Notes: generated by a model from the sequence alone, not told the origin. Positions 1-19,645 are shown, counted from the first letter of the stretch. The stretch: DNA of 26,786 nt from Actinomycetota bacterium (GCA_027729865.1 JAQCBM010000001.1:1-26786), one strand, 5' to 3'. Numbers and translations: made by a program.

Positions 1-651
1 GTGTTCATTAGAGCCGTGCGTGTGGGGATCGTCTGTGCGATCGCATTGAGTATCGGATTCGCGACCCCTGCCGCTGCTGATAGCCGTCGTGATGCGATTC
101 GCGTGCTGAACTCGCTGCCGGTCTCAATCGAGCGACCGAATGGCTACGACCGAAACCTGTTCCGTCACTGGTCGGACCTCGATGGTGATGGCTGCAACAC
201 CCGCGAGGAAGTGTTGATCGATGAACGCGTCGCCGGGCAAGTGGTGGGTTGCGACGTGGTGGGCGGTCGATGGCGATCGGCATATGAAGGTGATGTCACT
301 ACCAACCCGAGTTCCTTCGACATTGATCACTTTGTACCGCTGAAGGAAGCGTGGGATTCCGGTGCGTGGCGATGGAATGCCGGTACGCGTGAACGCTTCG
401 CGAATGATCTCGGCTTCGCCGGCGCGTTGATCGCAGTTTCCGCATCGTCCAATCGAAGTAAGTCCGACCGTGATCCGGCGGAGTGGTTGCCCGAACGAGG
501 GGTGTGTAAGTATGCGAAGACGTGGGTGGCGGTGAAGTTCCGCTGGCGCTTGGCCGTAGACACCACCGAGAAGTCCGAACTCACCCGCATCCTGCGGGGC
601 TGTTCACCGAAGATGCGGGTGCCTTCGCTGGCGCGTGTGGTGACGCAGTAA
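1..651 (+). CDS. Secreted HNH-type endonuclease family protein (DUF1524-like); true start could lie upstream of the window
   Basis: 216-aa ORF. N-terminal basic/hydrophobic signal peptide ending in PAAA; DxDxDGCNTREEVL; HNH-like FDIDHFVPLKEAW...SASSNRSKSDRDPAEWLP, typical of secreted actinobacterial HNH proteins. Confidence 0.78.
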   Translation: MFIRAVRVGIVCAIALSIGFATPAAADSRRDAIRVLNSLPVSIERPNGYDRNLFRHWSDLDGDGCNTREEVLIDERVAGQVVGCDVVGGRWRSAYEGDVTTNPSSFDIDHFVPLKEAWDSGAWRWNAGTRERFANDLGFAGALIAVSASSNRSKSDRDPAEWLPERGVCKYAKTWVAVKFRWRLAVDTTEKSELTRILRGCSPKMRVPSLARVVTQ

Positions 652-658
652 TGGTTGT

Positions 659-1390
659 TTAGCGGGTGCGCAGGATGACGAACTGGAAGCGCCCCTCGAC
701 AAAGTAGGTCTTGCTGTACGCGACGGGTTCACCGGATCGGTCGTAGTGCACCTGGTCGAGGAGAATCAGAAGTTCGTCAGCAACGTGATCTTCTGCGATA
801 GGCACATCGCTGCCGCGCACGGCGTGGATCTCGGCCAGTGCACGGTTGGGAGTCAAGCCGATTCGGTCGAGCACAGCGAACACTGATCCATTGCCCAGTG
901 ATACGTCCTCACTCGCTGGAACCAGGTTCCCCGGAATAGCGTCGATGGAAATGGCCACCACTTCGCCATCGGCGAGTATCTCGCGGTGCACGGCCACGAT
1001 CTCGTCGTTGGCGTTCACGTCCAAACGTGCGCACTCGTTCTCGTCGGCCTGCCGCCGAGTGAGCGAAATCCGACGCACCTTCGCATCCAGACCAAGTTCC
1101 TCGATCGTCTCGGTGATCGAGCGCAGTTCCTGAAGACCCGATCGGATTTGGCCGCCGAAGTCCACTACGAACATGCCCGAACCGTGACGGATGTCGACCA
1201 GCCCCTGGGATTCCAGCGACTTCGCCGCAGTGCGAACTGTTACGCGGGACACCCGATAGCGCTCGCACAACTCCGCCTCGCTGGGCAGCCGGGAGCCGGG
1301 CGAGAACTCACCAGCGACGATGCGCCGGCGTAGGTCCTCGGTGATCTGCCGGGCGAGCGGGGTGCGGGGGGTTGTGGTGGAACTGGGCAT
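659..1390 (-). CDS. GntR family (HutC/UTRA subfamily) transcriptional regulator
   Basis: GntR wHTH (LPSEAELCERYRVSRVTVRTA...GSGMFV) plus C-terminal UTRA-like domain (SKTYFVEGRFQF). Start trimmed to ATG at 1390, preceded by SD GGGAGGAG; divergent from mtnA. Confidence 0.92.
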   Translation of the reverse strand: MPSSTTTPRTPLARQITEDLRRRIVAGEFSPGSRLPSEAELCERYRVSRVTVRTAAKSLESQGLVDIRHGSGMFVVDFGGQIRSGLQELRSITETIEELGLDAKVRRISLTRRQADENECARLDVNANDEIVAVHREILADGEVVAISIDAIPGNLVPASEDVSLGNGSVFAVLDRIGLTPNRALAEIHAVRGSDVPIAEDHVADELLILLDQVHYDRSGEPVAYSKTYFVEGRFQFVILRTR

Positions 1391-1424
1391 GACGGTGTCT
1401 CCTCCCTGCGTTAGCCTAGCGGCG

Positions 1425-1439
1425 AGTTGTAGGACAACT
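1425..1439. promoter_or_regulatory. Palindromic operator AGTTGT-AGG-ACAACT, probable binding site of the adjacent GntR
   Basis: Perfect 6-bp inverted repeat with a 3-nt spacer in the 66-bp gntR/mtnA intergenic region. Core GTA-G-GAC fits GntR-type GT(A/C)-N0-1-(G/T)AC palindromes. Lies just downstream of a candidate -10 (TAGCCT, 1412-1417). Confidence 0.68.
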
Positions 1440-1456
1440 GTTGTGTTGGAGGCAAA

Positions 1457-2497
1457 GTGTCGGAGATCCGGGCGGTTCGCTGGGATGCGCACTCGATCGT
1501 GCTCATCGATCAGACGAAGCTGCCGGCGGTCGAGACCGCTATGGAGTGCGCCACCGTCGATCAACTGGTGGACGCGATCGTCCGCCTGGTGGTTCGCGGT
1601 GCTCCGGCACTCGGCGCGGTCGGTGGATACGGCGTGGCCCTGGCGATGATCCAAGGTGAGCGCGACGGCTGGGATTCCACGCGGTTGAACGCGGAGATCG
1701 ACCGGATTCGAAATGCGCGACCCACTGCGGTGAACCTGGCGTGGGGAGTGGACCGGGTGCGTCCGTTGGTAAGTGACGGCGTGGACGCAGTACTTGCCGA
1801 AGCGCAGCGCATCGCAGATGAAGACGAAGCCGCTAATCGTGAACTCTCACGCAAGGGCGCGGACTGGATTCTCGCGAACACCACGCGTCGTCCGTTGCGG
1901 GTGTTAACCCACTGCAACACCGGATCTCTGGCAACCACCGCGTGGGGAACGGCACTGGGCATCGTGCGCGAACTCCACGGGCGCGGTGAGATCGAAATGG
2001 TTTACGCCGATGAGACGCGGCCGTTGCTACAAGGATCGCGGTTGACCTCGTGGGAACTCACCCAAGACGGAATTCCGCACGTGGTGCAGGTGGATGGCGC
2101 TGCTGCGTCCACGCTGCTGCGCGGTTTGGTGGATGTAGCGATCATCGGCGCCGATCGCATTGCGCGTAACGGCGACACCGCGAACAAGATCGGTTCGGTG
2201 GGTGTGGCACTGGGTTGTTCGGCCGCTGAGGTGCCGTTTGTGGTCGCGGCTCCGTCGTCGACAGTGGACCTGTCCACGGCCTCGGGTGAATCGATCGAGA
2301 TCGAACTGCGCGATGGCGCAGAGGTGACCGAGTTCCATGCCGAATCCGTGGCGCCGGAGGGAGCCAAAGGATTCAACCCGGCTTTCGATGTGACACCCGC
2401 GCAGTACATCTCGGCCATCGTGACCGAGCAGGGAGTCGTGGAACCAGCCGCTGGTGTGCTGGTGGACTCCCTCGTGCCGGAAGGGGAACGTCCATGA
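1457..2497 (+). CDS. mtnA: S-methyl-5-thioribose-1-phosphate isomerase (MtnA / eIF-2B-like family)
   Basis: Motifs LIDQTKLP, VRGAPALG, RPTAVNL, LTHCNTGSLAT, ETRPLLQGSRLT, GADRIARNGDTANKIG, NPAFDVTP; SD GGAGG before GTG. Confidence 0.92.
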   Translation: MSEIRAVRWDAHSIVLIDQTKLPAVETAMECATVDQLVDAIVRLVVRGAPALGAVGGYGVALAMIQGERDGWDSTRLNAEIDRIRNARPTAVNLAWGVDRVRPLVSDGVDAVLAEAQRIADEDEAANRELSRKGADWILANTTRRPLRVLTHCNTGSLATTAWGTALGIVRELHGRGEIEMVYADETRPLLQGSRLTSWELTQDGIPHVVQVDGAAASTLLRGLVDVAIIGADRIARNGDTANKIGSVGVALGCSAAEVPFVVAAPSSTVDLSTASGESIEIELRDGAEVTEFHAESVAPEGAKGFNPAFDVTPAQYISAIVTEQGVVEPAAGVLVDSLVPEGERP

Positions 2498-4482
2498 GCA
2501 ACGAAGCCATGCCAACAGCGCTGACCGAACTCGTTCAACGCTCCAACCGCATCGGAGACGACCCTTCCCTCGTTGTCTACGGAGGCGGCAACACCTCTGC
2601 TAAAGGTGTGATCGTTGATCACCTCGGCCGCGAGCAACAGGTGATGTGGGTTAAGGGATCCGGTGCGGACATGCGCGGGTCGGTTCTTTCCGACTACCCG
2701 GGTCTGCGCCTTGGCGAACTCACCGCACTGCGTGAACGCGGTGAGATGAGCGATGAGGAGATGACCGACCTCGTTACCCGTGCGCTGTTAGATCCATCCT
2801 CTCGCCGGCCATCGATCGAAACGCTGCTGCATGCGTTCTTGCCGTTCACCCACATTGACCATGTGCACGCCGATGCGATCTGTGCGCTTACCAACCACGC
2901 TGAAGGCAAGAAGATCACCCTTGAGGCGCTTGGCGAGGGATTCGCCTACGTGGACTGGCTGCGTCCGGGTTTCGAGCTCAGCAAGATCGTCGGTGAGCTC
3001 TCGCACTACGAGGGAGTAGTGCTTGCGCACCACGGGCTGATCACCTGGGGGGATTCTTCCGCTGCGTGCTACCAGCGCACTATCGACGTGGTGGATCAAG
3101 CGCGCGAGTTCGTTGCGGCCAACCGTGTTGGCGCCGGACCGCCGCCGCGCCATGACGACATCCCCGAGGACGAATTGCGTCGATTGCTGTTGCACCTGCG
3201 CGGTGCGGTGAGCGCAACGGGTCACCGAGTCCTGCGGGTGGACGAACGATTGCGTGAGGTTGCCGATCATCCGCAGGTGGACAAGATCGTGGCCGGTGGT
3301 GTGTCGAGTGCCGACCACATGTTGCGCATCAAGCCGCGCTCCGTGGTTGTTCCCTCGGTTGATCACGTGAGCTCGTCTGTTGGGGCTTACCGCGATGAGT
3401 ACCTCGCGTATGTGGAACGCAACCACGAGTTGATGCCGGAGGGTTTCGGACCGCACGATCCGATGCCGCGCGTGATGCTGGTGCCGGGCGTGGGTGCGGT
3501 GACGACCGGAACCTCAGGCAAGGACGCTGCCGTTGCCGCGGACATCGCTGTACACACGCACGACGTTGCGCGGACCGTGCTCGAGGCATTCGGAACACCC
3601 GAGCCGTTGAGTGGTCGGGAGACTTTCCGCTTCGATTACTGGCCGATGGAGCTCTACAAGCTCACGCTTAAGCCCGCGCCGGCCGAGTTCGCCGGACGAA
3701 TCGTGATCGTGACGGGTGCGGCATCAGGGATCGGTCGCGGGATCGCGCTGGAGTTGGGTGCGCGGGGGTGCTCGTTGGTCCTTGCGGACCTCGATGCCAA
3801 TGGTCTGGACGAGGTTGCAGGTTCCCTCGTTTCCGCGGGCGCGCCTGAACCCGTGGTGGTGGCCGGAGATCAGTCCGACTCGTCGGTCACCTCAGCCACG
3901 GTTCACCGTGCGGTGCGGCACTTCGGTGGGCTGGACGGCGTGGTGCTGAACGCGGGCGTGGGCGTCTCTGGGACGTTGACGGAACTGACCGACGAGCAGT
4001 GGAACACCGCACTGCAGGTGAACCTGACGAGCGCGTTCTCACTCACCCGTGAATCGATGCGCGCGATGCAAGAACAGAGTCTAGGCGGTTCCCTGGTGTT
4101 CGTTGCGAGCAAGAACGCTTTCGGTCCCGGTGCCGGCTTTGGTGCTTACTCGGTGTCCAAGGCCGGGATGATCCAACTGATGCGCATCGCAGCACTCGAA
4201 GGTGGCAAGCACCAGATCCGATCCAATGCGATCAACCCCGACGCGGTATTCGACAACTCGAAGTTGTGGGAGGGGGGCTTGCGTGAAGAGCGTGCAGCAG
4301 CCCACGGCATCGCACCGGAGGAACTCGAAGACTTCTACGCCTCACGCAACTTGCTCGGTCGCCGAGTGACCACGTCAGACGTTGCGCAGTCCGCAGCCTT
4401 CTTGCTGTCCGATCGTTCCTCGCGGACCACGGGTTCGGTCCTTACGGTGGACGGCGGGGTAGCGGTCGCGTTCCCGCGGTAG
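2494..4482 (+). CDS. Bifunctional class II aldolase / short-chain dehydrogenase (RhaD-ADH, RhaEW/YuxG-like fusion)
   Basis: N-terminal class II aldolase: YGGGNTSAK, VKGSG, RPSIETLLH, HIDHVHAD, HHGLITWG (Zn-binding His). C-terminal SDR: TGAASGIG, NAG, YSVSK. ATGA overlap with the mtnA stop. Substrate not certain. Confidence 0.86.
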   Translation: MSNEAMPTALTELVQRSNRIGDDPSLVVYGGGNTSAKGVIVDHLGREQQVMWVKGSGADMRGSVLSDYPGLRLGELTALRERGEMSDEEMTDLVTRALLDPSSRRPSIETLLHAFLPFTHIDHVHADAICALTNHAEGKKITLEALGEGFAYVDWLRPGFELSKIVGELSHYEGVVLAHHGLITWGDSSAACYQRTIDVVDQAREFVAANRVGAGPPPRHDDIPEDELRRLLLHLRGAVSATGHRVLRVDERLREVADHPQVDKIVAGGVSSADHMLRIKPRSVVVPSVDHVSSSVGAYRDEYLAYVERNHELMPEGFGPHDPMPRVMLVPGVGAVTTGTSGKDAAVAADIAVHTHDVARTVLEAFGTPEPLSGRETFRFDYWPMELYKLTLKPAPAEFAGRIVIVTGAASGIGRGIALELGARGCSLVLADLDANGLDEVAGSLVSAGAPEPVVVAGDQSDSSVTSATVHRAVRHFGGLDGVVLNAGVGVSGTLTELTDEQWNTALQVNLTSAFSLTRESMRAMQEQSLGGSLVFVASKNAFGPGAGFGAYSVSKAGMIQLMRIAALEGGKHQIRSNAINPDAVFDNSKLWEGGLREERAAAHGIAPEELEDFYASRNLLGRRVTTSDVAQSAAFLLSDRSSRTTGSVLTVDGGVAVAFPR

Positions 4483-4488
4483 TTGCTC

Positions 4489-5592
4489 CTACTGGCGTAG
4501 GGCTTCGACCATCGCACGCGAGTTTGTTGCGAGATCACCGCGGTGGAGCGCTCCGCCGATGAGAAGCGCGACGTTATCTCCGTAGAACTCGGTGAGTTCA
4601 CCGAGGCGGTCCAACGTCATGCCACCGCCCGGGCTTGGCCACGATCGCGCCAGGTTGCCCAGGGGTGCGTGGCATAGGTCCTTGATCTGCGCGCATTCGG
4701 CGGGTGAGAACGAGAATCGGCCGCCGTAGTTCGGAAAGATCGAGATGTCCGCTCCCGCTAGGCGCATCAAGGTCCCGAAAAGGATGCCGTGATCGATGCC
4801 CTGATCAGGGTTGACAACGTTCGATCCCAGGAACGATGGATGCGCCATGATCGGTAAGGCCAGGGAATCGTCGTCGGCCAGCATGCGCATCGCGTCGAAT
4901 CCCGACACCCCAGGAAGCACCAAGAGTGCACCAGCGCCGGCCTCCTTGGCCTCGTGCGCGGCATCGACGATCCGATCGGCGGGAACGTTCAAACTCGGCA
5001 TGTAGAGCGCGTTGGTTCCGGCTTGTTCACGTGCTTGATTGACGTGCTCTGCGATGACTCGAGTGCGTTCCTTCCAACGCGCCCACGGTTGATCGGCAAG
5101 ACCGTGGTCGTCTTTGATGATGTGGAAGCCAGCGCGGGTGATGGTCGCGGCCATCTCGCCGAGTCCTTGCGGATCGGTGCCCATCGGCTTCACCGCGGTG
5201 CAGACAAGTGGACCGGTGGGGGCATCGACGAGCGCGCGAAGTCCGTCGATGCCAAAGCGCGGACCACGAAAATCCGCGAGGTAGGAATCCGGCAAACGTA
5301 GGCCGGTGACGCGAACGCCCGGGAAGAGCGACACATTCCCCCACAGCACATTCAGCAGTTGAGTGATGCCGCCGCCGGCAACGCCGGGGTTGTAGGAAAT
5401 CGTGACGTTGTTTCCGCTGATGTTCTCAATGCGACCGACGACGGTTTCCTGGATCCACTCCGGAGCCAGATCGAACGGGAATTCGATGGTCTGCTCGACG
5501 CGGATCGCATCGGCGACTTCCCTGGAATCTCCAACCGAGATTCGGTAGTCGACAACGATGCGGTCTGCTGAGCCCGACGCGCTCGTTGTCAT
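4489..5592 (-). CDS. RuBisCO-like protein (form IV), resembling the R. rubrum 5-methylthioribulose-1-phosphate 1,3-isomerase type
   Basis: VEQTIE, NVLWGNVSL, GPRFGIDGLR, AVKPMG, IKDDHGLADQ (KDDH rather than KDDE), AHP, FPNYGGRF, PGGGM, LIGG. 367 aa, shorter than a true RbcL. ATGA-coupled to the upstream transketolase subunit. Confidence 0.9.
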   Translation of the reverse strand: MTTSASGSADRIVVDYRISVGDSREVADAIRVEQTIEFPFDLAPEWIQETVVGRIENISGNNVTISYNPGVAGGGITQLLNVLWGNVSLFPGVRVTGLRLPDSYLADFRGPRFGIDGLRALVDAPTGPLVCTAVKPMGTDPQGLGEMAATITRAGFHIIKDDHGLADQPWARWKERTRVIAEHVNQAREQAGTNALYMPSLNVPADRIVDAAHEAKEAGAGALLVLPGVSGFDAMRMLADDDSLALPIMAHPSFLGSNVVNPDQGIDHGILFGTLMRLAGADISIFPNYGGRFSFSPAECAQIKDLCHAPLGNLARSWPSPGGGMTLDRLGELTEFYGDNVALLIGGALHRGDLATNSRAMVEALRQ

Positions 5593-6629
5593 AGTGCTTC
5601 GACCTTGGCGCTGCTGTGGGTGGCGGCAACGCGAACCGGTGCGAGGTCGGCTGCATCGATACCGAACGTGCGTCCAAGGGCTTGTTCGGCTGTGCGCACT
5701 AAAGACATGGCGTCGAGGTCGTACTCGCGCAGCAGGTAGGCCTGCGACGCGCCATGTGCGTAGGTGTCGGGCAGCCCGATGCGGTGCAGCGGAGCTGCAA
5801 TGCCGTTCTCGGCCATAACCTCGGCTACCGCCGAACCCAAGCCACCGGTGATCAGGTGGTTCTCCATGGTGATCACACCGCTACGCGCACTACGCAGCGC
5901 TGTGAGCACGGTGGGATCGGTGAAGGGCTTGAGGGTTGAGACGTGCAGATGCGTGACTCTTGCGCCTGCATCTTGCAGCGCAGGAATGGCACGAAGTGCC
6001 TCTTCGGTTTCGATCCCGGACGTGAGCACCACGAGGTCCGCCGGATCCTCGATCGAGCTACCGGCGACCGACAGCACTCGTGCGGTGTTGAAGCGCATCG
6101 GCTCGGGGAACAGGCGCGGCACTTCGCCACGCAGCATGCGGATGTAGACCGGACCGTCGATGGCGTGCGCAACATCAAGCACGCTCTCCACCTCGGTGGC
6201 GTCGCCGGTTTCCAGGATCGTCATGTTCGGGATAGTTCGCATCACTGCAACGTCGTCGATCGCCTGGTGGGTCACGCCACCGGGAGTGGTGATACCGGGC
6301 AGGAAGCCGACCAGGCGCACCTTCAGGTTCGGGTACGCGATGGACATCTGCAGTTGATCGAGTGGGCGGCGGTACAAGAACACTGCGAACGTGTGCAGCC
6401 ACGGTTCGAAACCTTCGCGAGCGAGCCCAGCAGCGAAGCCGAGCATGTTCTGTTCGGCCATGCCCATGGAGAAGAAGCGCTCGGGGTAGGTGTCGCGCCA
6501 CTTGCCGACTTCGCACGAGTTGGTGAGGTCCGCGCTGAGCACCACAACCTCGGGCTTATCGGCCGACCAACGAATGAAGTTCTCTACGTGTGGGCGGCTG
6601 ACGATCTCTACGTCCGTTTTCGCGCTCAT
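5589..6629 (-). CDS. Transketolase-family C-terminal (pyrimidine-binding + C-terminal domain) subunit
   Basis: LSADL, PERFFSMGMAEQNM, THQAIDD, GPVYIRMLR, TLKPF, ENHLITGGLGSAVAE; ATGA overlaps at both ends. Confidence 0.9.
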   Translation of the reverse strand: MSAKTDVEIVSRPHVENFIRWSADKPEVVVLSADLTNSCEVGKWRDTYPERFFSMGMAEQNMLGFAAGLAREGFEPWLHTFAVFLYRRPLDQLQMSIAYPNLKVRLVGFLPGITTPGGVTHQAIDDVAVMRTIPNMTILETGDATEVESVLDVAHAIDGPVYIRMLRGEVPRLFPEPMRFNTARVLSVAGSSIEDPADLVVLTSGIETEEALRAIPALQDAGARVTHLHVSTLKPFTDPTVLTALRSARSGVITMENHLITGGLGSAVAEVMAENGIAAPLHRIGLPDTYAHGASQAYLLREYDLDAMSLVRTAEQALGRTFGIDAADLAPVRVAATHSSAKVEAL

Positions 6630-7537
6630 GAAGTGGCTCCGATCAGAACGTCGTCGTAGAACTTCTGGTACTCGGCTCGTTCCTCAGGACCGGTGAAGCG
6701 CAGGTAGTGCAAAACAGGTCGACGATCATTGAGCAGCGGCACACCGCGCGCGGGATCGGTATACGCGAGGACGAAGTGCGGTTTGCCGGTGGGGCGTTCG
6801 AGCGATGAGGTGAGAGCCGCGATGTCGTGGCCATCGACCGAGTCCACACTCGCACCGAATGCCTTGAGTTTGGTTGCTAGCGGTTCGATTGTCATGACCG
6901 AATCCATCGGGCCATCGCACTGCGCGCGATTTACATCGACCACCACGCGCACCGTGTCGAGTCGATAGAAGGCAAGTGCCTGGATTGCTTCCCAGGTTTG
7001 CCCTTCTTGGAATTCACCGTCGCTCATGAACACGAACGTGCGACCGGTCTCCTTCTTCAAGCGCCGACCCAGGGCGATGCCGCCGGCGGTGGACAGCGCT
7101 TGCGCGAGGGACCCTGTGGTGGTTTCGAAGCCGGGCGAGTGTTCGGCGCCGATCATCTCGACGGTGGAACCGTCTTTGTTGAACTGATCGAGTGCGGCCT
7201 CGTCCAGGCGCCCGGCCTCGATGAGTGCTGCGTAGACCACCAGGGCGTAGTGCGCGGGGGAGACGATCAACCGGTCGAGGTCTGGACCCGGCTCGCCGTG
7301 GAATACCCCGCCGGATACGCGCGGGGCGTCTGGTCCGGGAACAGCCTCGATGGCAGGCGGGTGCAGCGGCCCGTCGGTGGGGGCGAGCTTGAGCACCGAG
7401 GCGTAGAGGGCGGCGAGCAGTTCGGCTGAGGAACAGGCTTGGCTGAGATAGCCGCCGTTGTTGGCCAGCACGTGGGCCAGGACCCGGCGGCGGATGCCCG
7501 CGGCCATGAGTGTGGGTTCGATTGTCGATTGAGGCAC
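6626..7537 (-). CDS. Transketolase-family N-terminal (ThDP-binding) subunit
   Basis: TGSLAQALS, ThDP motif [13 protein letters not shown]...DVN, VDGHD. Start set at GTG 7537 because a -35/-10 pair sits 6 nt upstream; ATG 7507 is the alternative. The longer ORF-track start at 7837 overlaps xylB. Confidence 0.87.
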
Positions 7538-7543
7538 GTGGCC

Positions 7544-7572
7544 AGGGTACAAAGAGGTAGGTCGTCCTACAA
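7544..7572 (-). promoter_or_regulatory. Housekeeping-sigma-type promoter of the transketolase-RLP operon, probably leaderless
   Basis: Minus strand reads TTGTAG (7572-7567) - 17 nt - TACCCT (7549-7544) - 6 nt - GTG (7537); no SD present. Confidence 0.62.
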
Positions 7573-7574
7573 GT
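7560..7574 (-). promoter_or_regulatory. Second copy of the putative GntR operator (ACTTGTAGGACGACC), overlapping the -35 element
   Basis: 12/15 identical to the 1425-1439 palindrome, with a perfect 9-bp core TTGTAGGAC. Confidence 0.62.
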
Positions 7575-7615
7575 CTGTATTTGTTCACCGGGGTGGATGT
7601 GGCACGGTTCCACCC

Positions 7616-9049
7616 ATGGCAGCAGAAAAACTCGTCGCGGGGGTAGATACCTCGACCCAGTCGGTGAAGGTGGTCGTGCGCGATGCGCAGACCGGGGCGT
7701 GGGTGCGCGAAGGTCGGGCGGCGCACCCCGATGGCACCGAGGTGGACCCCGGTGTCTGGTGGCAGGCGTTCGTGCAGGCGTGCTCGGGCGGATTGCTCGA
7801 AGGAGTGTCCGCGATCTCGGTTGCCGGCCAACAGCACGGCATGGTCGCTCTGGATGAAACCGGCGCTGTTGTGCGACCTGCGTTGTTGTGGAACGACACC
7901 CGCTCGGCTGCCGACGCAACTGAACTCACGGCCGAACTCGGTGGACCCGCAGCGTGGGCCGAAGCAGTGGGCAGCGTTCCCCTCGCCGCATTCACCGTCA
8001 GCAAGGTGCGGTGGATGGCGCGCAATGAACCGGACAACGCAGCGCGCACGTCAACGATCATGCTTCCGCACGACTACCTGACCTGGATGCTCGCCGATCG
8101 CCCGAATGACGCTGTTACCGATCGCGGCGATGCCAGTGGAACCGGCTATTGGTCGCCGGCAACCGGTGAGTACCGCCGCGACATTCTGATCGCGGCTCTT
8201 GGTCACGATGTTTCTTTGCCGCGCGTTGCGGGACCTTTCGAAGTGGTGGGCGAACTTGGTGGTCAAGCCCGCGCGCTACTGGGAATCAGCGGTAGCCATC
8301 CGATCCTCTTGGGACCGGGAACCGGCGACAACATGGGTGCGGCCTTGTCCTTGGGAATCGGTCCCGGTGACGTAGTGGTGTCTTTGGGAACCTCCGGAAC
8401 AGCCTTCGCAGGATCGGATGCGCCCACTGCGGATCCGACCGGACTTGTCGCAGGATTCGCCGATGCGAGTGGACGTTTCCTGCCGCTGGTGTGCACGTTG
8501 AATGCCGCCCGAGTGCTCACGAGCACCGCGGAATTGCTGGGCGTGGATATGAACGAGTTCGCACGACTCGCTCTGAGCGCCGCACCTGGTGCCAGTGGGT
8601 TGACGATGCTGCCGTACTTCGACGGTGAGCGGACACCGAACCTTCCTGATGCGCGCGGCTCGCTGCACGGCATCAGCCGCGACAATCTGACACCTCCCAA
8701 CATCGCGCGAGCGGCAGTCGAAGGCATGCTCGGTGGCCTCGCCGACGCGGTTGATGCGCTGGTGGATGTGGGTGTGGAACCCCGGCGCGTTCTGCTAGTC
8801 GGTGGTGCTGCTGCGAATCCTGCTGTGGTCGAGGTTGCAGCGACGTTGGTCGATGCCCCGGTGGAAGTTCCGCCGGCCGGCGAATACGTGGCCGACGGGG
8901 CTGCCCGCCAAGCCGCATGGGTTCTGTTGGGGGACGGTATGCCGGCGTGGCCGGCTGTGCGTGAAGGTGAGACAGATCGGCGCGACGCGAACCCGGTGTC
9001 GCAGGTTCGGCTCCAGTACCGAGATGCCCGGGAGGCTTTGTACTCGTGA
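7616..9049 (+). CDS. xylB: FGGY-family carbohydrate kinase, xylulokinase-like
   Basis: [52 protein letters not shown]. Start trimmed to ATG 7616 ([11 protein letters not shown]). Confidence 0.85.
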
Positions 9050-10245
9050 TCGAAGGGGGAGGACTCTCGCGGGTACTGCGCGCACTGCACGCCGCGGGAG
9101 CCCTGACCCGCTCCGATCTCGGTTCCTTGACCGGTTTGAATCGCAGCACTGTTGCCACGATCGTCAATGAACTCGTCGCCGCAGGCGTAGTCGAAGAAGG
9201 CGCCGGTGCTTCCGGTGGGGTGGGTCGGCCGTCACTAGTGGTGCGGGCGGTCCCCGATTCGGTTGCCGTCATCGGATGGGACATCCGTGCGGATTCCAGT
9301 ACCGCAGTAGTGGAAGGAATCGGGGGACAGATCCTGCATCGATGGTCGAAGGCGCATCGTCGCGGCTCCACCGATCCGTATGAGGTTGCCGCGCGCGTGG
9401 TCGCGGGGAGTTCGCAGATTGCTGAGGAACTGCCCGACCACGTGCTGTGGGTTGGCGTGGGGTGCGCGCTGCCCGGGATCATCGACCCCGGAGGTGACCC
9501 GCCGCGCAGCACCATCCACCGCGCGCCAACACTTGGCTGGGTGGATACGCCCTTCGGCGTGATCTTGTCCGAAGCGATGAGCGAGCAGTTCGGTTCCCAG
9601 GTTCCGGTTGTGCTCGGCAACGACGCGAACCTCGGTGCGATGGCCGAGTGGACACGCGGCGCCGGAAAGCGAAGCCGCGTGATGGTGTTCGTCTCGGGCG
9701 ATGTAGGTATCGGTGGTGGCGTGATCGTCGACGGTGAACCGTTGACGGGCGCATCCGGATTTGCCGGCGAGATCGGTCACATTCGCTTCGATCCCAATGG
9801 TGCTCCGTGTCGATGCGGTTCGCGCGGATGCTGGGAGACGGTGATTGGTCTGACCACCATCGTGTCCGCCGCTGGACTGGATCCTCTCAAGGCAGGAATC
9901 GACGACGTCCTATCGGCTGCGCAGGCAGGTGATGCGACGTGTCAATCGGCGCTCGCTGCCGCTGCCCGCGCGGTGGGCCAAGGTTTGGCACCGGTGGTGA
10001 ACATGGTGAACCCCGACACCATCGTGTTAGCCGGGCATCTCGAGGTTCTCTTGGAGCACTACCGACACACGATCATCGAGGAATTGCGCTTCACCCTGTC
10101 TCGTGAAAGCACGGATATCCGCGTCGTAGGACCAGCTCTTGGGTCCGACAGCATCGTGGTAGGTGCCGCCGAACTCGCCTTTGAGCGAGCACTCGATCGA
10201 CCGCAAAGGTGGCTGACTGCGCCGGAATCACTCCGAAGCGAATAA
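9046..10245 (+). CDS. ROK-family transcriptional repressor (XylR-like)
   Basis: N-terminal HTH ([17 protein letters not shown]), [20 protein letters not shown]...[10 protein letters not shown] Zn motif; GTGA overlap with the xylB stop. Confidence 0.9.
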
Positions 10246-10338
10246 CTGACTACCCGATTTCGTTCCGCATGGGGAAATGTGACCAGGTAATTGCACCGAT
10301 CTGCGGACAGGAGTCCCGCCGATAGGCACACTTTCCGA

Positions 10339-10428
10339 CAGTCGCCACCCCCCTGGCGACTGGAGTGCGCCTCGCGCGCTTCGGGAACCCGCGCGACAAC
10401 CCCCCAGCCGCGCGGGTTCCGCCTTTTT
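10339..10428 (+). ncRNA. 6C RNA (actinobacterial small RNA with two C-rich-loop hairpins)
   Basis: Hairpin 1: CAGTCGCCA-CCCCCC-TGGCGACTG (9 bp, loop of 6 C). Hairpin 2: GGAACCCGCGCG-ACAACCCCCCAGC-CGCGCGGGTTCC (12 bp, loop with 6 C), followed by GCCTTTTT. This is the defining 6C architecture. Candidate -10 CACACT at 10327-10332. Ends approximate. Confidence 0.85.
10384..10428 (+). terminator. Intrinsic terminator formed by the second 6C hairpin plus U-tract
   Basis: 12-bp perfect GC-rich stem (10384-10395/10409-10420) followed by TTTTT at 10424-10428. Confidence 0.6.
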
Positions 10429-10485
10429 CCTGGTCTCGCTAGGCGCGAGACTCGTGTTCCCTGGTCTCGCTAGGCGCGAGACTCG
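10429..10485. repeat. Tandem duplication of a 26-bp hairpin-forming unit (31-bp period)
   Basis: CCTGGTCTCGCTAGGCGCGAGACTCG at 10429-10454 and 10460-10485. Each copy contains the stem GTCTCGC-N5-GCGAGAC. The second copy contains the stop codon of the 515-aa gene. Confidence 0.9.
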
Positions 10486-12017
10486 AACATCCCCAGCAGG
10501 GCTGCCACCCCCAGCACCGAGCGCGGTGCGTAAGCCGCACGCCACAGTCCGCCGTGGTTCGCGCCTCTGGCGAACAGATCCATGGGATTGGTGAGTGGGG
10601 TGGCCGGGTTGGCTGACGACGCCGGGTTGCGCAGATCGTGCACGAGCATGGCCGCCATCAAAGTGGTTGAGGTCGATGGGTCAAAAACCTCCACACCGAA
10701 CTTGTCGGCACCTGCGTACGCAGCGGCGAGCGCTCGGTTGCGGACAACGGAGCGCGTGCGCGTTGCTGGAGCGAGGTTCAGCGAGACGGGAATGCCGTCC
10801 GCACGAGCGGCGAGCGCCCGCCACCGTTGGATGCGCTTGGCCAAGATGTAGTTCGGTCCTTGCTGGGGAATGATCGAATCATTCAAGCCGATGCGTTGAC
10901 CGCTGAGCGTTGTGTATGTGGTCGGGTAATTGGGTTCGAACTGGTTCGCAATTCGCAGCGGGGCCTGCAGCAGACCACCGATACCTCTATTACCCCAGCG
11001 CCGCTTGCTCTCCTCGACGCATTCGATGGGAACGACGAACACGTCGGTGGGAGTGGCCAGGAACGCCAGCGTTAGGTCGGAGCGCTCAGCTGCAAGGGAA
11101 GTTGTGATCGCATCGCTGGCCACGGACAAAAGCGCATGCGTTGCTCCGTCGGCATACGCATAAGTGCCGAGAACAAAGGGTTGGTCGATCTCGGATAGCC
11201 AGGTGCGGACCTCGGGTGCTTGTGTCAGAAGGTCGGCACCGGCTGATGCGCAGATCGTGGCGTCGTCGTCGGGATGAACATCCCCGCCCACCACGAAAGG
11301 TGGATTTCCCTCGGCATCCAGGGAGATTGGAATGCGCAATGTTCCAGCAGTGCTGCGGGTGATGGAAGTCAGGTGCTCCCAGATCGCCGGGCGCGGGAGA
11401 TCAACCGCGTGCACACGAGCACCCCAGCGAAGAAGTGATCGGGTGGGTGCCATCTCCGCGCCGGCTCCGAGCAAGGCGATGTCGATATCGCGTAGGTCGA
11501 GCCAATCGGGGTTGTCCATGACGAGGTGGATCGCTGCACCGAAGGACGGTTCGGCTATTCCACGTTGGACCCACGAGTCGACCTGACGTCGCAGTTCGTC
11601 GCCGAATAAGCGGCGTCCTTTGTAGGGGACAGAAAGGTCTTCATCCCGGGTGGATCGTCCTCTGACGGTTACCGAAGCCAGCCCGGGTGCAGTGAATTCC
11701 GTGAAGGCTTCGCGTAGCGATACCTCGTTCCCGTTTCGACGGAAGGTGAAACGCTGGTCGGTCGATGCCAGTCCGTGCCGGGAAATCGACAGCGCGTTCT
11801 CCGTCGATTGCGCAGCAGCTAGGACTATGTCGCGTAATGGGGCGATGTATCCCTTGCGCCAATCGCGAGTGTGCTCGATTCGAGGAGTAATGGCTGGATC
11901 CACTGCGCGGATCGAATCGGCGAAGATTGCTCGCCCGGTTGCCGAAGTGCTGCGCCGATCATCCCCGCCTAGCGGGAAACACACACCGTCCACGTTCACG
12001 GAGCGGGGATCGGGCAT
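10470..12017 (-). CDS. Hypothetical protein with Rossmann/SDR-like motifs
   Basis: 515-aa ORF; leaderless signature TATTCT-N6-ATG; IDIALLGAGAE glycine-rich motif, VHAVD, and YxxxK (NYILAK). Function unknown. Confidence 0.75.
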   Translation of the reverse strand: MPDPRSVNVDGVCFPLGGDDRRSTSATGRAIFADSIRAVDPAITPRIEHTRDWRKGYIAPLRDIVLAAAQSTENALSISRHGLASTDQRFTFRRNGNEVSLREAFTEFTAPGLASVTVRGRSTRDEDLSVPYKGRRLFGDELRRQVDSWVQRGIAEPSFGAAIHLVMDNPDWLDLRDIDIALLGAGAEMAPTRSLLRWGARVHAVDLPRPAIWEHLTSITRSTAGTLRIPISLDAEGNPPFVVGGDVHPDDDATICASAGADLLTQAPEVRTWLSEIDQPFVLGTYAYADGATHALLSVASDAITTSLAAERSDLTLAFLATPTDVFVVPIECVEESKRRWGNRGIGGLLQAPLRIANQFEPNYPTTYTTLSGQRIGLNDSIIPQQGPNYILAKRIQRWRALAARADGIPVSLNLAPATRTRSVVRNRALAAAYAGADKFGVEVFDPSTSTTLMAAMLVHDLRNPASSANPATPLTNPMDLFARGANHGGLWRAAYAPRSVLGVAALLGMFESRA

Positions 12018-17204: not shown

Positions 17205-18137
17205 TTAGGAGCGCGGCAGTTGGTGCTGCTCTACCGCATAGGCACGCGGACCGTCGGGTGTCCATTCCCGATGGATGATCACCATGCCACCGGGAGCAAG
17301 GCGGGTATCCCACAACGGATCGGCATGGGTGTCTTCCGGTGTGAGGTTCAACCCCGCAGCGAGAGCGGAGAGCACAGTCGGCAGGACGGGCCGATGAGTG
17401 CAGACAACCATGGGTGCTGGATCGACTAGTAACTCGGTGACGCGTTTCTCAGTAACCGAAGGATCGAATGCGTGCCCCGATTCACTGATGGCTGCCTCGA
17501 GCTGCACATCCACGCCGATCGATTTCGCGTAGCGGTTAACCGTTGACAGACACCTCTTGAACGGCGAGGAATACACCCGTTCGATTCCATAGGCATCAAG
17601 AACGTCGGTGAGTCGCTTGGCTTCACCCCTACCTCTGCCCGACAGGGGTCGATCGGCGTCGTCATCTCCATCGAAGTCAGCGCGCTTCATCGCCTTTGCG
17701 TGCCGCAGGATGATCAGCGGAGTTGTGGGGGGCGCGGTGATTGCGTGCTTCACTAAGGCAGCGTCGTCCGGGTAGGTCAAGAAATCCTCGGCACCGGACA
17801 CTGGCACCCAGCGGATCTCGTCTACTTCCTCATCGGGGGCGAATCCTTCGTCACCTCGCACGCGACCGATCCAGTAGTCGACGACCTTGTTCTGACCGTC
17901 CGCTGTGTAGTGCAAGCTGGGTAGGCGCGTTGAGAGCGAAACCTGGAAGCCGGTCTCTTCGTCGCATTCGCGCACGGCAGCGCACGGCAGTGTCTCGCCG
18001 GCATCCACCTTGCCTTTGGGAAGCGACCAGTCTTTGCGGCTGGGTCGATGGACTGCCAGGAAGTGCTGATCGGGGTCCATTTCCGGGTGGAAGACCACCA
18101 CTCCGGCGGCGCGGATCGGTTCAGTTTCCTTGGCCAT
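17205..18137 (-). CDS. mutT1: Nudix hydrolase - histidine phosphatase fusion (MutT1-like)
   Basis: WSLPKGKVDAGETLPCAAVRECDEETG Nudix box; C-terminal LRHAKA...RPLS...SSPFKRC phosphatase fold; TGATG overlap with the CHAD stop; downstream of ppk1. Confidence 0.85.
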   Translation of the reverse strand: MAKETEPIRAAGVVVFHPEMDPDQHFLAVHRPSRKDWSLPKGKVDAGETLPCAAVRECDEETGFQVSLSTRLPSLHYTADGQNKVVDYWIGRVRGDEGFAPDEEVDEIRWVPVSGAEDFLTYPDDAALVKHAITAPPTTPLIILRHAKAMKRADFDGDDDADRPLSGRGRGEAKRLTDVLDAYGIERVYSSPFKRCLSTVNRYAKSIGVDVQLEAAISESGHAFDPSVTEKRVTELLVDPAPMVVCTHRPVLPTVLSALAAGLNLTPEDTHADPLWDTRLAPGGMVIIHREWTPDGPRAYAVEQHQLPRS

Positions 18138-19645
18138 CAGCGAAGTCCGAGTGAGTGAGCTTGGTGGGCGATATCTGGCCAACGCTTCACGAACGCGCGA
18201 ACGTCGTCGTCGCCCGCCGCTGCGCAGGTGGCTGAGTGAAGCCCCAACCGGTAGGCAATCGGCGAGGGCGCCGATTCGGCGATCTCCTCAAGCGTGTGGA
18301 TGGACACCTGTGCATCTTGCCGGGATCCGAGCGTGTCGGTGACCCAAGCCAGAGATTTCCCCAAGCGGCGGTAGCCCTCACCGAAGATGGGAGCAACCGC
18401 TTCGGCTGCGTAACGGGCCTTCTTGGCGTTAATGCGAATGCGGTGCCACTGTTCCGCGGGAGTGTTGAGGTCTGAACCCTTCACGCTACGACGCAGTTTC
18501 CGCCAGGGGGCGTCCACGCATTCGAGAATCGCGGCGCCAACCGGTTCGAAGGCGCGCGGACCCACTGGTGGCTCGCTGACTAGGAGGATCAGATCCTCGA
18601 TCAGGAAATCGTGTCGGTCGCTGCGAAGTGCAGCAAGGGCACTGGAGCGCGCGGCCCGAAGTCTTTGCTCGAGATATTCGACAACGAACGCGCACGCATC
18701 GTGGTCGTGGATGTCCTCACTCAAGGCGGCGAGTTGGACCTCGGTGTCACGCACCTGGCCGAGTTCGGTGGCCAGCCATGCCAATTCCTCGCGCAGGAAT
18801 GACGTCGTCTCGGTGTCCAGCAGGGGCCGGAAGGTGGTGAGTGCTGCGCGAAGTCGTCTACAGGCGACCCGCATTTGGTGCACGGAGTCAGGGAGGTTGC
18901 GCCGTACACCAACATCCGCCATCAATAGATCACGCACGTAACGGCTGAAGATTGCCTGCAGGGCATTGATCGCAGGGGCATCAAGGTCCGGGTAATCCAA
19001 GATGGGAACGTCGGGTGGATCACCAGCGCGGCGACCAAGCGCCTGCGCAGCCTTGCTGAGGGAACTGGGTTCGGCCCCAGCGCTCAACAGCGCTGCGCTG
19101 ACGACGCTGGCAAGTTCCGCACCGGCCCGCGAATCGTCAAGCAATTCGACTTCCACTTCTCGGAACACTGTGCTCGGAGTCGATCCGGGAGTGCCCACAC
19201 TTACCCGATCATCAACCACTTCGACGAGGTGATCGTCGGTTTCACCCTTGATCAGGAACGGCGTGCGCTCGGTATTCACCTGAGCCATAGCGGTGATGTC
19301 CTGGCGACGAATCAATGGCGCGGCGATGGAAGCTAGTTCTACCGGCACGGCATCTGCTGGCTTATCGACACGGATTTCATCTCGAGAACTCGAGCCGGCA
19401 GATGGTGCGGTCGGCACTTTCATGTGCCAGCCATCGTCACCGCCTCCAGTGCGGTGGCGAAGGGTGATACCCCACCTCAGCAGGTTCAGGTTGGGGGTGT
19501 CGTAGTACGTGGCAGACATCGACCGAACAGGCTCTCGCGAGAACTGAGTGTCCGCGCCGCGAAGGAGCTCCTCCAGATCCAACGTCACATCCGCGGGAAC
19601 CCGGTACTTGAACTCGATTTCCCGGTGCTCGGTAACGCCGCTCAC
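18137..19645 (-). CDS. CYTH + CHAD domain protein (polyphosphate-associated)
   Basis: N-terminal EIEFKY (ExExK), YYDTP..L...[16 protein letters not shown]; CHAD motifs [12 protein letters not shown] and [12 protein letters not shown]; in an operon with ppk1. Confidence 0.9.

Follow-up and report, generated by a model that had tools for sequence, protein, structure and literature searches.

A split transketolase-family enzyme with a remodelled substrate site, encoded with a RuBisCO-like protein in what is most likely an undescribed branch of S-adenosylmethionine by-product salvage

We identified three tightly coupled minus-strand genes in a 26,786-nucleotide stretch of an 82%-complete metagenome-assembled genome (MAG) of an Actinomycetota bacterium (GCA_027729865.1, JAQCBM010000001.1:1-26786; this whole stretch is called the window below). 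They encode the two halves of a transketolase relative, TK-N and TK-C, and a RuBisCO-like protein (RLP); to judge from sequence comparison and gene neighbourhood, they most likely represent an undescribed branch of the salvage of S-adenosylmethionine by-products, in which a transketolase-family enzyme has a remodelled substrate site. TK-N (6626-7537; 303 aa, GTG start at 7535-7537) is the PP subunit, which binds the diphosphate of thiamine diphosphate (ThDP), of a split transketolase relative; TK-C (5589-6629; 346 aa) carries the Pyr and C-terminal domains; and the RLP, which is apparently of the short DeepYkr type, lies at 4489-5592 (367 aa). Both junctions are ATGA overlaps, the first joining the TK-N stop to the TK-C ATG and the second the TK-C stop to the RLP ATG. 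We propose, with about even confidence, that TK-N/TK-C is dedicated to the product of the co-translated RLP, which it would cleave between C2 and C3 before eliminating methanethiol. That the substrate would be 1-methylthio- or 1-deoxy-xylulose-5-phosphate has a slightly better than even chance of being right; the elimination chemistry itself, in which loss of methanethiol leaves an acetyl unit, is a tentative suggestion.

The fate of methylthioadenosine (MTA) and 5-deoxyadenosine is only partly known, and the routes recorded so far are the oxygen-dependent universal pathway, the dihydroxyacetone phosphate (DHAP) shunt, and the RLP-cupin isoprenoid shunt. The TK/RLP module would be a fourth solution, and a widespread one: a scan of species-representative genomes gave 356 candidate stretches, of which we examined the best 80 (80 species). 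In a full-text literature search we found no link between an RLP and a transketolase in MTA metabolism; a genome-context remark in Erb 2012 or Warlick 2012 may still exist. Only variants of the DHAP shunt are named in a review from 2026 on the metabolism of MTA and methylthioethanol, which cites the RLP-cupin work. If the proposal is true, the module would allow oxygen- and thiol-cofactor-independent salvage of methionine and carbon from MTA or methylthioribose in abundant freshwater Actinomycetota and in members of at least six other phyla, would explain how methylthio sulfur is recovered in bacteria that have neither glutathione nor the dioxygenase step, and would add a reaction type to the transketolase-family enzymes. 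What is new in this analysis is the residue-by-residue comparison, the replacement of a residue network as a set, the coupling of His26 with His100, the mutual exclusion of cupin and transketolase, and the comparison of RLP active sites.

Pfam places TK-N in Transketolase_N (61 bits, cut-off 22), and TK-C in Transket_pyr (93 bits, cut-off 27) and Transketolase_C (62 bits, cut-off 26). According to HMMER, the closest solved relative is a split transketolase, the alpha2beta2 enzyme of Carboxydothermus hydrogenoformans (6yak, 133 bits with TK-N; 6yaj, 197 bits with TK-C), with which the pair shares its split-gene architecture. The AlphaFold2 (AF2) models of TK-N and TK-C have pLDDT values of 87.8 and 87.0, and the top PDB fold match of the former is again 6yak (E 1.8e-19, TM 0.70/0.75). 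TK-N and TK-C are thus predicted to form a ThDP-dependent enzyme of the transketolase superfamily, with the fold of the canonical enzymes (E. coli TktA and 6yak/6yaj). The best transketolase equivalog, NF004559 (cut-off 488), gives TK-N only 146 bits and TK-C only 194, the dxs model TIGR00204 gives TK-C 147 bits against 466, and NCBIfam has no model specific to either subunit. Neither the phosphoketolase family XFP (at E <= 1e-5) nor Xsc is among the Pfam and NCBIfam matches in the window; nor is there an NCBIfam model for apulose-4-phosphate transketolase (AptA/AptB) among the matches, no AptA/AptB reference sequence having been compared, and the genomic context is methylthioribose salvage, not apiose.

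In the 80 loci, the identity of TK-N is 57-89%; they come from Actinomycetota, Chloroflexota, Spirochaetota, Alphaproteobacteria, Planctomycetota, and Acidobacteriota, and the actinomycetote carriers include freshwater Nanopelagicales-type MAGs, Georgenia, Ornithinimicrobium, Enemella, Microbacteriaceae, and Acidimicrobiia. Among the carriers are the cultured strains Georgenia sp. H159, Ornithinimicrobium cavernae KCTC 49018, Enemella sp. A6, and Alkalispirochaeta alkalica DSM 8900. The order TK-N, TK-C, RLP is found in essentially every locus with enough flanking sequence, with MtnA (5-methylthioribose-1-phosphate isomerase) nearby in most, and in about 70 species the triad stands beside MtnA, MtnK, or an MtnP-like phosphorylase. 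MtnA is the commonest further neighbour; the other repeated ones are MtnK (TIGR01767, 388 bits vs. cut-off 275), a ribose-type ABC importer, a PNP-type phosphorylase, a SnoaL-like protein, and GntR or DeoR/SorC regulators. For example, three loci (L040, L049, and L051) have a single operon of mtnA, the gene of an aldolase fused to a short-chain dehydrogenase/reductase (SDR), importer genes, mtnK, snoaL, tkN, tkC, and rlp, and an alphaproteobacterial operon (L073) consists of the PNP-type phosphorylase gene, mtnA, tkN, tkC, and rlp, with no aldolase. The aldolase is absent from many TK-RLP clusters, including the minimal ones in Alphaproteobacteria, Spirochaetota, and Chloroflexota. On one metagenome contig the RLP is fused in frame to TK-N, and TK-C follows (P0125, L099:2663-4855). 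A maximum-likelihood tree unites 72 rows in a clade supported at 95%. An RLP is present in the available DNA of 69 of them; of the remainder, L059 and L085 are cut short by the end of the contig, and L065 lacks an RLP.

Several further observations concern these loci. TK-N and TK-C are fused to each other in P0126, P0129, and P0130, the last of which is preceded by an RLP fragment (L100). The contigs labelled 'Rubrivirga sp.' (Rhodothermota; L008, L009, L012, L014, and L018) carry a cluster 85-89% identical to that of the Nanopelagicales MAGs and are nested among them on the tree, which is likely to reflect mislabelled or misbinned MAGs rather than transfer. Two MtnA paralogues occur per locus in L055, L057, L061, L067, L074, and L081 (mostly Acidimicrobiia): a copy of 35-38% identity is coupled to the aldolase-SDR fusion, and a copy of 40-53% identity lies directly upstream of TK-N. 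In 12 loci (L040, L045, L047, L049, L051, L058, and L063 among them), but not in the window, a 132-aa SnoaL/NTF2-like protein is encoded between mtnK and tkN; it might be a handler of a minor epimer of the RLP product.

The closest solved relative of the window RLP is 3qfw (204 bits over the full length; other RLP types reach at most 123 bits), which we take to be RLP1 of Rhodopseudomonas palustris, and its match to MtnW is below the cut-off (179 vs. 409 bits). DeepYkr-type RLPs of Rhodospirillum rubrum and R. palustris convert 5-methylthioribulose-1-phosphate to 1-methylthio-xylulose-5-phosphate, from which an adjoining cupin makes 1-deoxy-xylulose-5-phosphate (DXP) and methanethiol (PMC5893883, PMC6302742). 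We searched the window RLP against 401 sampled alphaproteobacterial genomes, and 18 had a match. In two of these (47% and 41% identity) TK-N and TK-C are encoded beside the RLP and there is no cupin gene directly downstream; in the other 16 (32-38% identity) there is no transketolase, and one conserved Cupin_2 gene lies directly downstream in every case (by BLAST with a confirmed cupin). No homologue of the RLP-linked cupin occurs in the 80 TK-linked loci; in the window's own genome and five module genomes there is none either, and the search gave only domain noise of 21-25 bits. From this distribution, the RLP appears to have two mutually exclusive partners, the cupin or the TK-like enzyme. 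The residues that are invariant in the TK-linked RLPs are mostly identical in the cupin-linked ones (52 of 61, including K135, KDDH 160-163, H251, R277, D282, GGRF, and PxGGM), and since the active-site residues are shared, the same RLP product is to be expected in both groups. It is this conservation, together with the mutual exclusion, that places the TK-like enzyme after the RLP; most likely it takes the place of the cupin and consumes its substrate.

The module thus resembles the MTA-isoprenoid shunt of R. rubrum and Rhodopseudomonas palustris (MtnP, MtnA, DeepYkr RLP, and cupin methylsulfurylase; PMC5893883, PMC6302742) in its upstream enzymes and RLP type, but the cupin is absent and a TK-like enzyme stands in its place. 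The cupin route requires a thiol such as glutathione, which is lacking in Actinobacteria (PMC6302742), whereas the TK route would need no thiol of this kind; nor would it provide DXP for isoprenoids, if C2-C3 is cleaved.

Residues of the transketolase are numbered below after E. coli TktA (MG1655 sequence, numbering checked), from an alignment of the window proteins, TktA, the canonical transketolase of the same genome, E. coli DXS, and 75-79 family members (57-89% identity); codons and segments lie on the minus strand. HMMER alignments to 6yak/6yaj place the substituted residues identically to the TktA alignment. Much of the canonical active site is retained. The ThDP/Mg2+ motif (SDGE...DVN) runs from Asp173 to Asn203 of TK-N (E. 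coli Asp155 and Asn185; 6929-7021) and is invariant in 79/79 sequences, and the cofactor-activating Glu411 corresponds to Glu59 of TK-C (codon 6453-6455; 75/75). His261 (His277 of TK-N, in LHY; codon 6707-6709) is invariant in the family alignment, His473 (His121 of TK-C; codon 6267-6269) is kept in 75/75, and the equivalents of His66, Phe434, and Phe437 are also invariant. Three of the four residues that grip the substrate phosphate are retained, namely Arg358 (Arg12 of TK-C, codon 6594-6596; Arg in 72 of 75 and Lys in 3), Ser385, and Arg520 (Arg167 of TK-C, codon 6129-6131; 75/75). The fourth, His461, is lost to Leu110 of TK-C (codon 6300-6302), which is invariant in the family; FLPG of TK-C aligns here with the THDS of TktA and the THAG of 6yaj, and the 461-469 loop is one residue shorter.

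The substrate site otherwise differs from that of canonical transketolases at several positions. His26 is replaced by Tyr30 of TK-N (codon 7448-7450; Tyr in 79/79), Arg91 by Asn120 (codon 7178-7180; Asn in 79/79), and His100 by Met128 (codon 7154-7156; Met in 73/79, Leu in 6/79, never His); in TK-C, Pro116-Gly117 (codons 6279-6284) stand at Glu468-Asp469, each in 75/75, within the TTPGGVTHQ encoded at 6264-6290. Ile189 is Cys in 70 of the 79 family members. An insertion of about 26 residues (26-27 in the family; 7283-7390) lies between the His26 and His66 positions of TK-N, which are 66-67 residues apart, compared with 40 in E. coli transketolase and in both the canonical and the other split transketolase of the same genome; the insertion is ordered in the AF2 model (pLDDT 77-92). 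TK-C ends in a tail, H-S-x-A-K-x-E-A-L (5592-5630), that is nearly invariant in the family, was not seen in the ordinary transketolases compared, and is disordered in the isolated AF2 model (pLDDT 30-45). A preliminary description of this locus, made from the window's sequence, had reported Tyr for His26 and Gly for Asp469 together with an intact ThDP motif and catalytic Glu, and both alignments bear this out, coordinates included. It had missed His100 to Met, which is the substitution that favours a donor lacking the C1 hydroxyl, as well as Arg91 to Asn, His461 to Leu, Glu468 to Pro, Ile189 to Cys, the insertion, and the TK-C tail.

At least seven phyla are represented among the 75-79 homologues in which the substituted states are invariant, and because Tyr and Gly are without exception at 57-89% identity, the substitutions are not products of chance or drift. 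His26 and Arg91 both form hydrogen bonds to Asp469 in E. coli transketolase, where a salt bridge also links Glu468 with Arg520 and electrostatic coupling links His461 with Asp469 (PMC3657141); since these residues interact, the known co-evolving His26/Asp469/Arg91 network has been exchanged as a set for Tyr/Gly/Asn. His26 and Asp469 are, as the preliminary description had noted, engineering targets for stereo- and acceptor specificity: the variants D469T/A/S/Y are known and H26Y gives 88% ee (enantiomeric excess) R; changes at the two positions move activity toward non-hydroxylated aldehydes and invert stereoselectivity (PMC3657141). The same two positions are changed here, but in nature the whole His26/Asp469/Arg91 set has changed along with Glu468, His461, and His100, whereas laboratory double mutants in the network often lose function (PMC3657141). 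The family offers a natural, stable solution to the His26/Asp469/Arg91/His461 network, which engineers have found hard to recombine (PMC3657141).

Among the 94 cluster representatives nearest to TK-N, His26 occurs with His100 save for three exceptions and Tyr26 never occurs with His100, a near-strict co-occurrence by which the states of the two positions are coupled. In the yeast and E. coli structures, His100 binds the C1 hydroxyl of the donor, while His26 and Asp469 read the C3 and C4 hydroxyls and not C1. His26 pairs with His261 at the C3 hydroxyl and in acid/base catalysis, and Asp469, along with Arg91 and Glu468, recognizes the D-configured hydroxyl at C4 of the donor or C2 of the acceptor. 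The residues at positions 26 and 469 may be supplied from elsewhere: TK-N His133 (in AEH), which is invariant and stands at the position of E. coli Tyr105, and TK-C His14 (RPH) and His79 (HTF) are candidates for the lost His and Asp.

If the enzyme were an ordinary transketolase paralogue, acting on xylulose-5-phosphate and ribose-5-phosphate and serving pentose use with a xylulokinase, the substitutions would be tolerated drift; the XylB and ROK regulator genes that adjoin the operon, both here and in 26 related loci, would fit. However, six near-universal active-site residues are exchanged, with replacements that are invariant across phyla, the scores are far under every transketolase equivalog cut-off, and adjacency to xylB is limited to close relatives while adjacency to the RLP is general. 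A canonical tkt gene, moreover, coexists in six of six genomes (that of the window, at 753 bits, above cut-off, and five of five other module-carrying genomes), so TK-N/TK-C is not the housekeeping transketolase, and we consider an ordinary paralogue highly improbable. It is just as hard to credit that the pair is a non-catalytic scaffold or a regulatory partner of the RLP. Several substrate-contact residues are indeed lost, a fusion with the RLP exists, and the conserved TK-C tail, for which the model of the isolated subunit shows disorder, might serve to bind a partner; but the cofactor motif, the activating Glu, the pyrimidine-stacking Phe residues, His66, His261, and His473 are invariant, which would be pointless without catalysis.

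The window's genome has, outside the window, another split TK-like pair that is non-canonical as well (contig C394, loci L002 and L003), in which His26 and His100 are kept, Arg358 is replaced by Phe, Ser385 by Ala, and Asp469 by Tyr, and the Gln that follows His473 by His.

In the proposed pathway, an MtnP-like phosphorylase or MtnK would convert MTA or imported methylthioribose to methylthioribose-1-phosphate, MtnA would isomerize this to methylthioribulose-1-phosphate, and the RLP would produce 1-methylthio-D-xylulose-5-phosphate; 5-deoxyribose would yield 1-deoxy-xylulose-5-phosphate by the same route. The TK-like enzyme would add ThDP to C2 of the ketose and cleave C2-C3, with the 5-phosphate held by the Arg358, Ser385, and Arg520 equivalents, and glyceraldehyde-3-phosphate would leave. 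The kept phosphate site would fit a xylulose-5-phosphate-type tail, and Met at the His100 position would fit a donor whose C1 bears methylthio or methyl and not hydroxyl. The ThDP-bound 2-(methylthio)-1-hydroxyethylidene, which has a beta leaving group, could then lose methanethiolate to give acetyl-ThDP, to be released as acetate, acetyl phosphate, or acetyl-CoA. ThDP enamines do expel good beta leaving groups, as pyruvate dehydrogenase E1 shows with 3-fluoropyruvate; Xsc loses sulfite in this manner, and phosphoketolase water. O-acetylhomoserine sulfhydrylase (MetY) would turn methanethiol into methionine, and MetY is above cut-off in the window's genome and in five of five module genomes. 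ARD (MtnD) of the oxygen-dependent pathway is above cut-off in none of ten module genomes, and the window's genome has an MTAP-like gene just under cut-off (243 bits). Because elimination gives methanethiol and an acetyl product, the minimal clusters would need no further enzyme.

The enzyme would on this proposal be a new ThDP lyase, a methanethiol-releasing analogue of phosphoketolase that splits 1-methylthio-xylulose-5-phosphate into glyceraldehyde-3-phosphate, an acetyl unit, and methanethiol; we regard this as possible, at clearly less than an even chance. By analogy, the logic would be that of phosphoketolase (Xfp) and sulfoacetaldehyde acetyltransferase (Xsc), in which a two-carbon unit on ThDP loses its beta substituent (water and sulfite, respectively) to give acetyl-ThDP, although TK-N/TK-C belongs by sequence to neither family and AckA is inconsistent in the module genomes. 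Phosphoketolase, as far as is known, keeps all active-site histidines. DXS is comparable in another way, since it handles a C1-methyl two-carbon unit on ThDP together with glyceraldehyde-3-phosphate and has a 461-469 loop of the same length as TK-C; unlike TK-N/TK-C, it is a single chain in which the residues equivalent to His26 and Asp469 are conserved, His461 is matched by Arg, and the loop reads GADG where TK-C has PGG with Leu.

The feeder genes are also present in the window. MtnA is encoded at 1457-2497 (plus strand; TIGR00512, 395 bits vs. cut-off 279), and MtnA is predicted, by these assignments, to supply the substrate of the RLP. Coupled to mtnA is the gene of a class II aldolase-SDR fusion (2494-4482, plus strand; 600 bits with the NCBIfam bifunctional aldolase/SDR models, and Aldolase_II and adh_short in Pfam), and the two genes are convergent toward the TK/RLP operon. 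The fusion is probably a side branch like the DHAP shunt. That shunt (MtnK or MtnP, MtnA, and the class II aldolase Ald2/DrdA; PMC6079011, PMC13474568) has the same feeder enzymes, and the aldolase-SDR fusion lies in the same cluster here; it differs in ending in methylthioacetaldehyde or methylthioethanol and in using neither an RLP nor ThDP.

The aldolase bears on two further explanations, which share the RLP product as substrate. In the first, the enzyme is a true ketol transferase that takes a two-carbon unit, hydroxyethyl or one at the methylthioacetyl level, off the RLP product and hands it to an aldehyde, giving a novel deoxy- or methylthio-ketose; possible acceptors include aldehydes with no 2-hydroxyl, such as acetaldehyde or the methylthioacetaldehyde from the neighbouring aldolase. 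This agrees with membership of the transketolase superfamily and retention of His261 and His473, with the presence in actinobacterial operons of the aldolase-SDR fusion, the expected source of such aldehydes, and with the behaviour of E. coli Asp469 and His26 variants, which have raised activity on, or reversed selectivity with, non-hydroxylated propionaldehyde (PMC3657141). However, neither an aldolase nor an enzyme for an odd ketose is encoded in the minimal clusters of Alphaproteobacteria, Spirochaetota, and Chloroflexota, the kept phosphate grips point to a phosphorylated partner over a small aldehyde, and on chemical grounds a beta-methylthio ThDP enamine should eliminate faster than it transfers; we therefore think a transferase unlikely. 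The second is a simple lyase, in which the ThDP adduct is protonated after C2-C3 cleavage and methylthioacetaldehyde (or acetaldehyde, from DXP) is released, a twin of the DHAP shunt that yields glyceraldehyde-3-phosphate. The same context evidence that favours methanethiol elimination would favour it too, and the SDR domain of the actinobacterial clusters could reduce or oxidise such an aldehyde. But a lyase of this kind would duplicate the one-step work of the co-encoded aldolase, it would leave the sulfur in an aldehyde for which the minimal clusters have no enzyme, and it fails to explain the replacement of a cupin known to free methanethiol (PMC5893883); we judge it improbable.

Several points weigh against dedication of the enzyme to the RLP product followed by elimination. 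A sister group of the RLP-linked clade (L062 and L068) has the same Tyr/Met/Gly pattern and no RLP in loci of 20 kb; because these RLP-less relatives share the substitutions, the latter would be older than the RLP link or serve a broader class of substrates. Besides TK-N and TK-C, the clusters in question (positions of about 200-12000) encode an FGGY kinase, a class II aldolase-like protein, a Zn-dependent alcohol dehydrogenase, an ABC importer, and a double-domain binding protein, a composition that hints at a related ketose phosphate supplied through a kinase. If glyceraldehyde-3-phosphate leaves as usual, the changes at Asp469, Glu468, and His461 are unexplained; perhaps the substrate is another epimer (1-methylthio-ribulose-5-phosphate) or has a different tail, or there is an acceptor site that is new. 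The aldolase-SDR fusion of the actinobacterial clusters could dispose of methylthioribulose-1-phosphate alone, in which case a second route would seem superfluous. Neither pta nor ackA is linked to the module, and AckA, present in three of five module genomes, did not turn up in that of the window, which is 82% complete. Acetyl phosphate as an obligatory product was set aside on account of the patchy AckA.

The sister group leads to another possible substrate: a 2-keto acid (in a decarboxylation like that of DXS or E1), a ketose phosphate made by an FGGY kinase, or a compound upstream of the RLP. The active site of L062 and L068 beside an FGGY kinase, with no RLP in the available DNA, would agree with this, as would the FGGY kinase gene divergent from the window operon. 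So would a wider split TK-like clade with Tyr26 and without His100 (L093, L094, L095, L101, and two contigs), which occurs in other contexts, either beside a cupin and a Zn-dependent alcohol dehydrogenase or beside an SDR and an enolase-superfamily (sugar-acid) dehydratase; this clade would fit a general loss of the pocket for a hydroxymethyl donor. Against it, the RLP link is near-absolute in the 72-member clade and includes a gene fusion, the commonest further neighbour, MtnA, makes the known substrate of DeepYkr RLPs, and the exclusion of cupin by transketolase puts the enzyme after the RLP, so that we hold a different substrate to be quite unlikely. The preliminary description had also proposed a non-canonical substrate delivered by the RLP. 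This is the best-supported reading, given the triad, the fusion, and the exclusion of the cupin; the reasoning then offered was incomplete, His26 and Asp469 not being C1 contacts.

The FGGY kinase of the window is XylB-like (7439-9049, plus strand; TIGR01312, 404 bits vs. cut-off 380, over ORF residues 68-498), and its true start is probably near 7640. Such a kinase lies next to the TK operon in 26 related loci, and its role in the pathway is only putative; a ROK regulator is encoded beyond the TK operon, on the same side. The window XylB shares only 26% identity with the FGGY kinase of the RLP-less sister clusters, and we therefore dropped the idea that the two are orthologues. The short intergenic region between the divergent tkN and kinase genes (7538-7640) contains repeated TTGTA/GTAC-like elements.

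On the other side of the module, a GntR/HutC-type regulator is encoded divergently from mtnA (659-1654, minus strand; NCBIfam matches over ORF residues 95-327), with a true start probably near 1390; a regulator of this type adjoins mtnA in about 20 loci. Domain and family scans of the window proteins revealed no cupin, pta, or ackA product, and the remainder of the window consists of unrelated housekeeping genes. A 515-aa ORF at 10470-12017 (minus strand) has no Pfam or NCBIfam family, and an apparently similar ORF of about 528 aa, likewise without a family match, is found in 13 closely related loci. At 17205-19645 (minus strand) there is a NUDIX-histidine phosphatase fusion adjoining a CYTH-CHAD protein and a polyphosphate kinase, an ordinary-looking polyphosphate neighbourhood.

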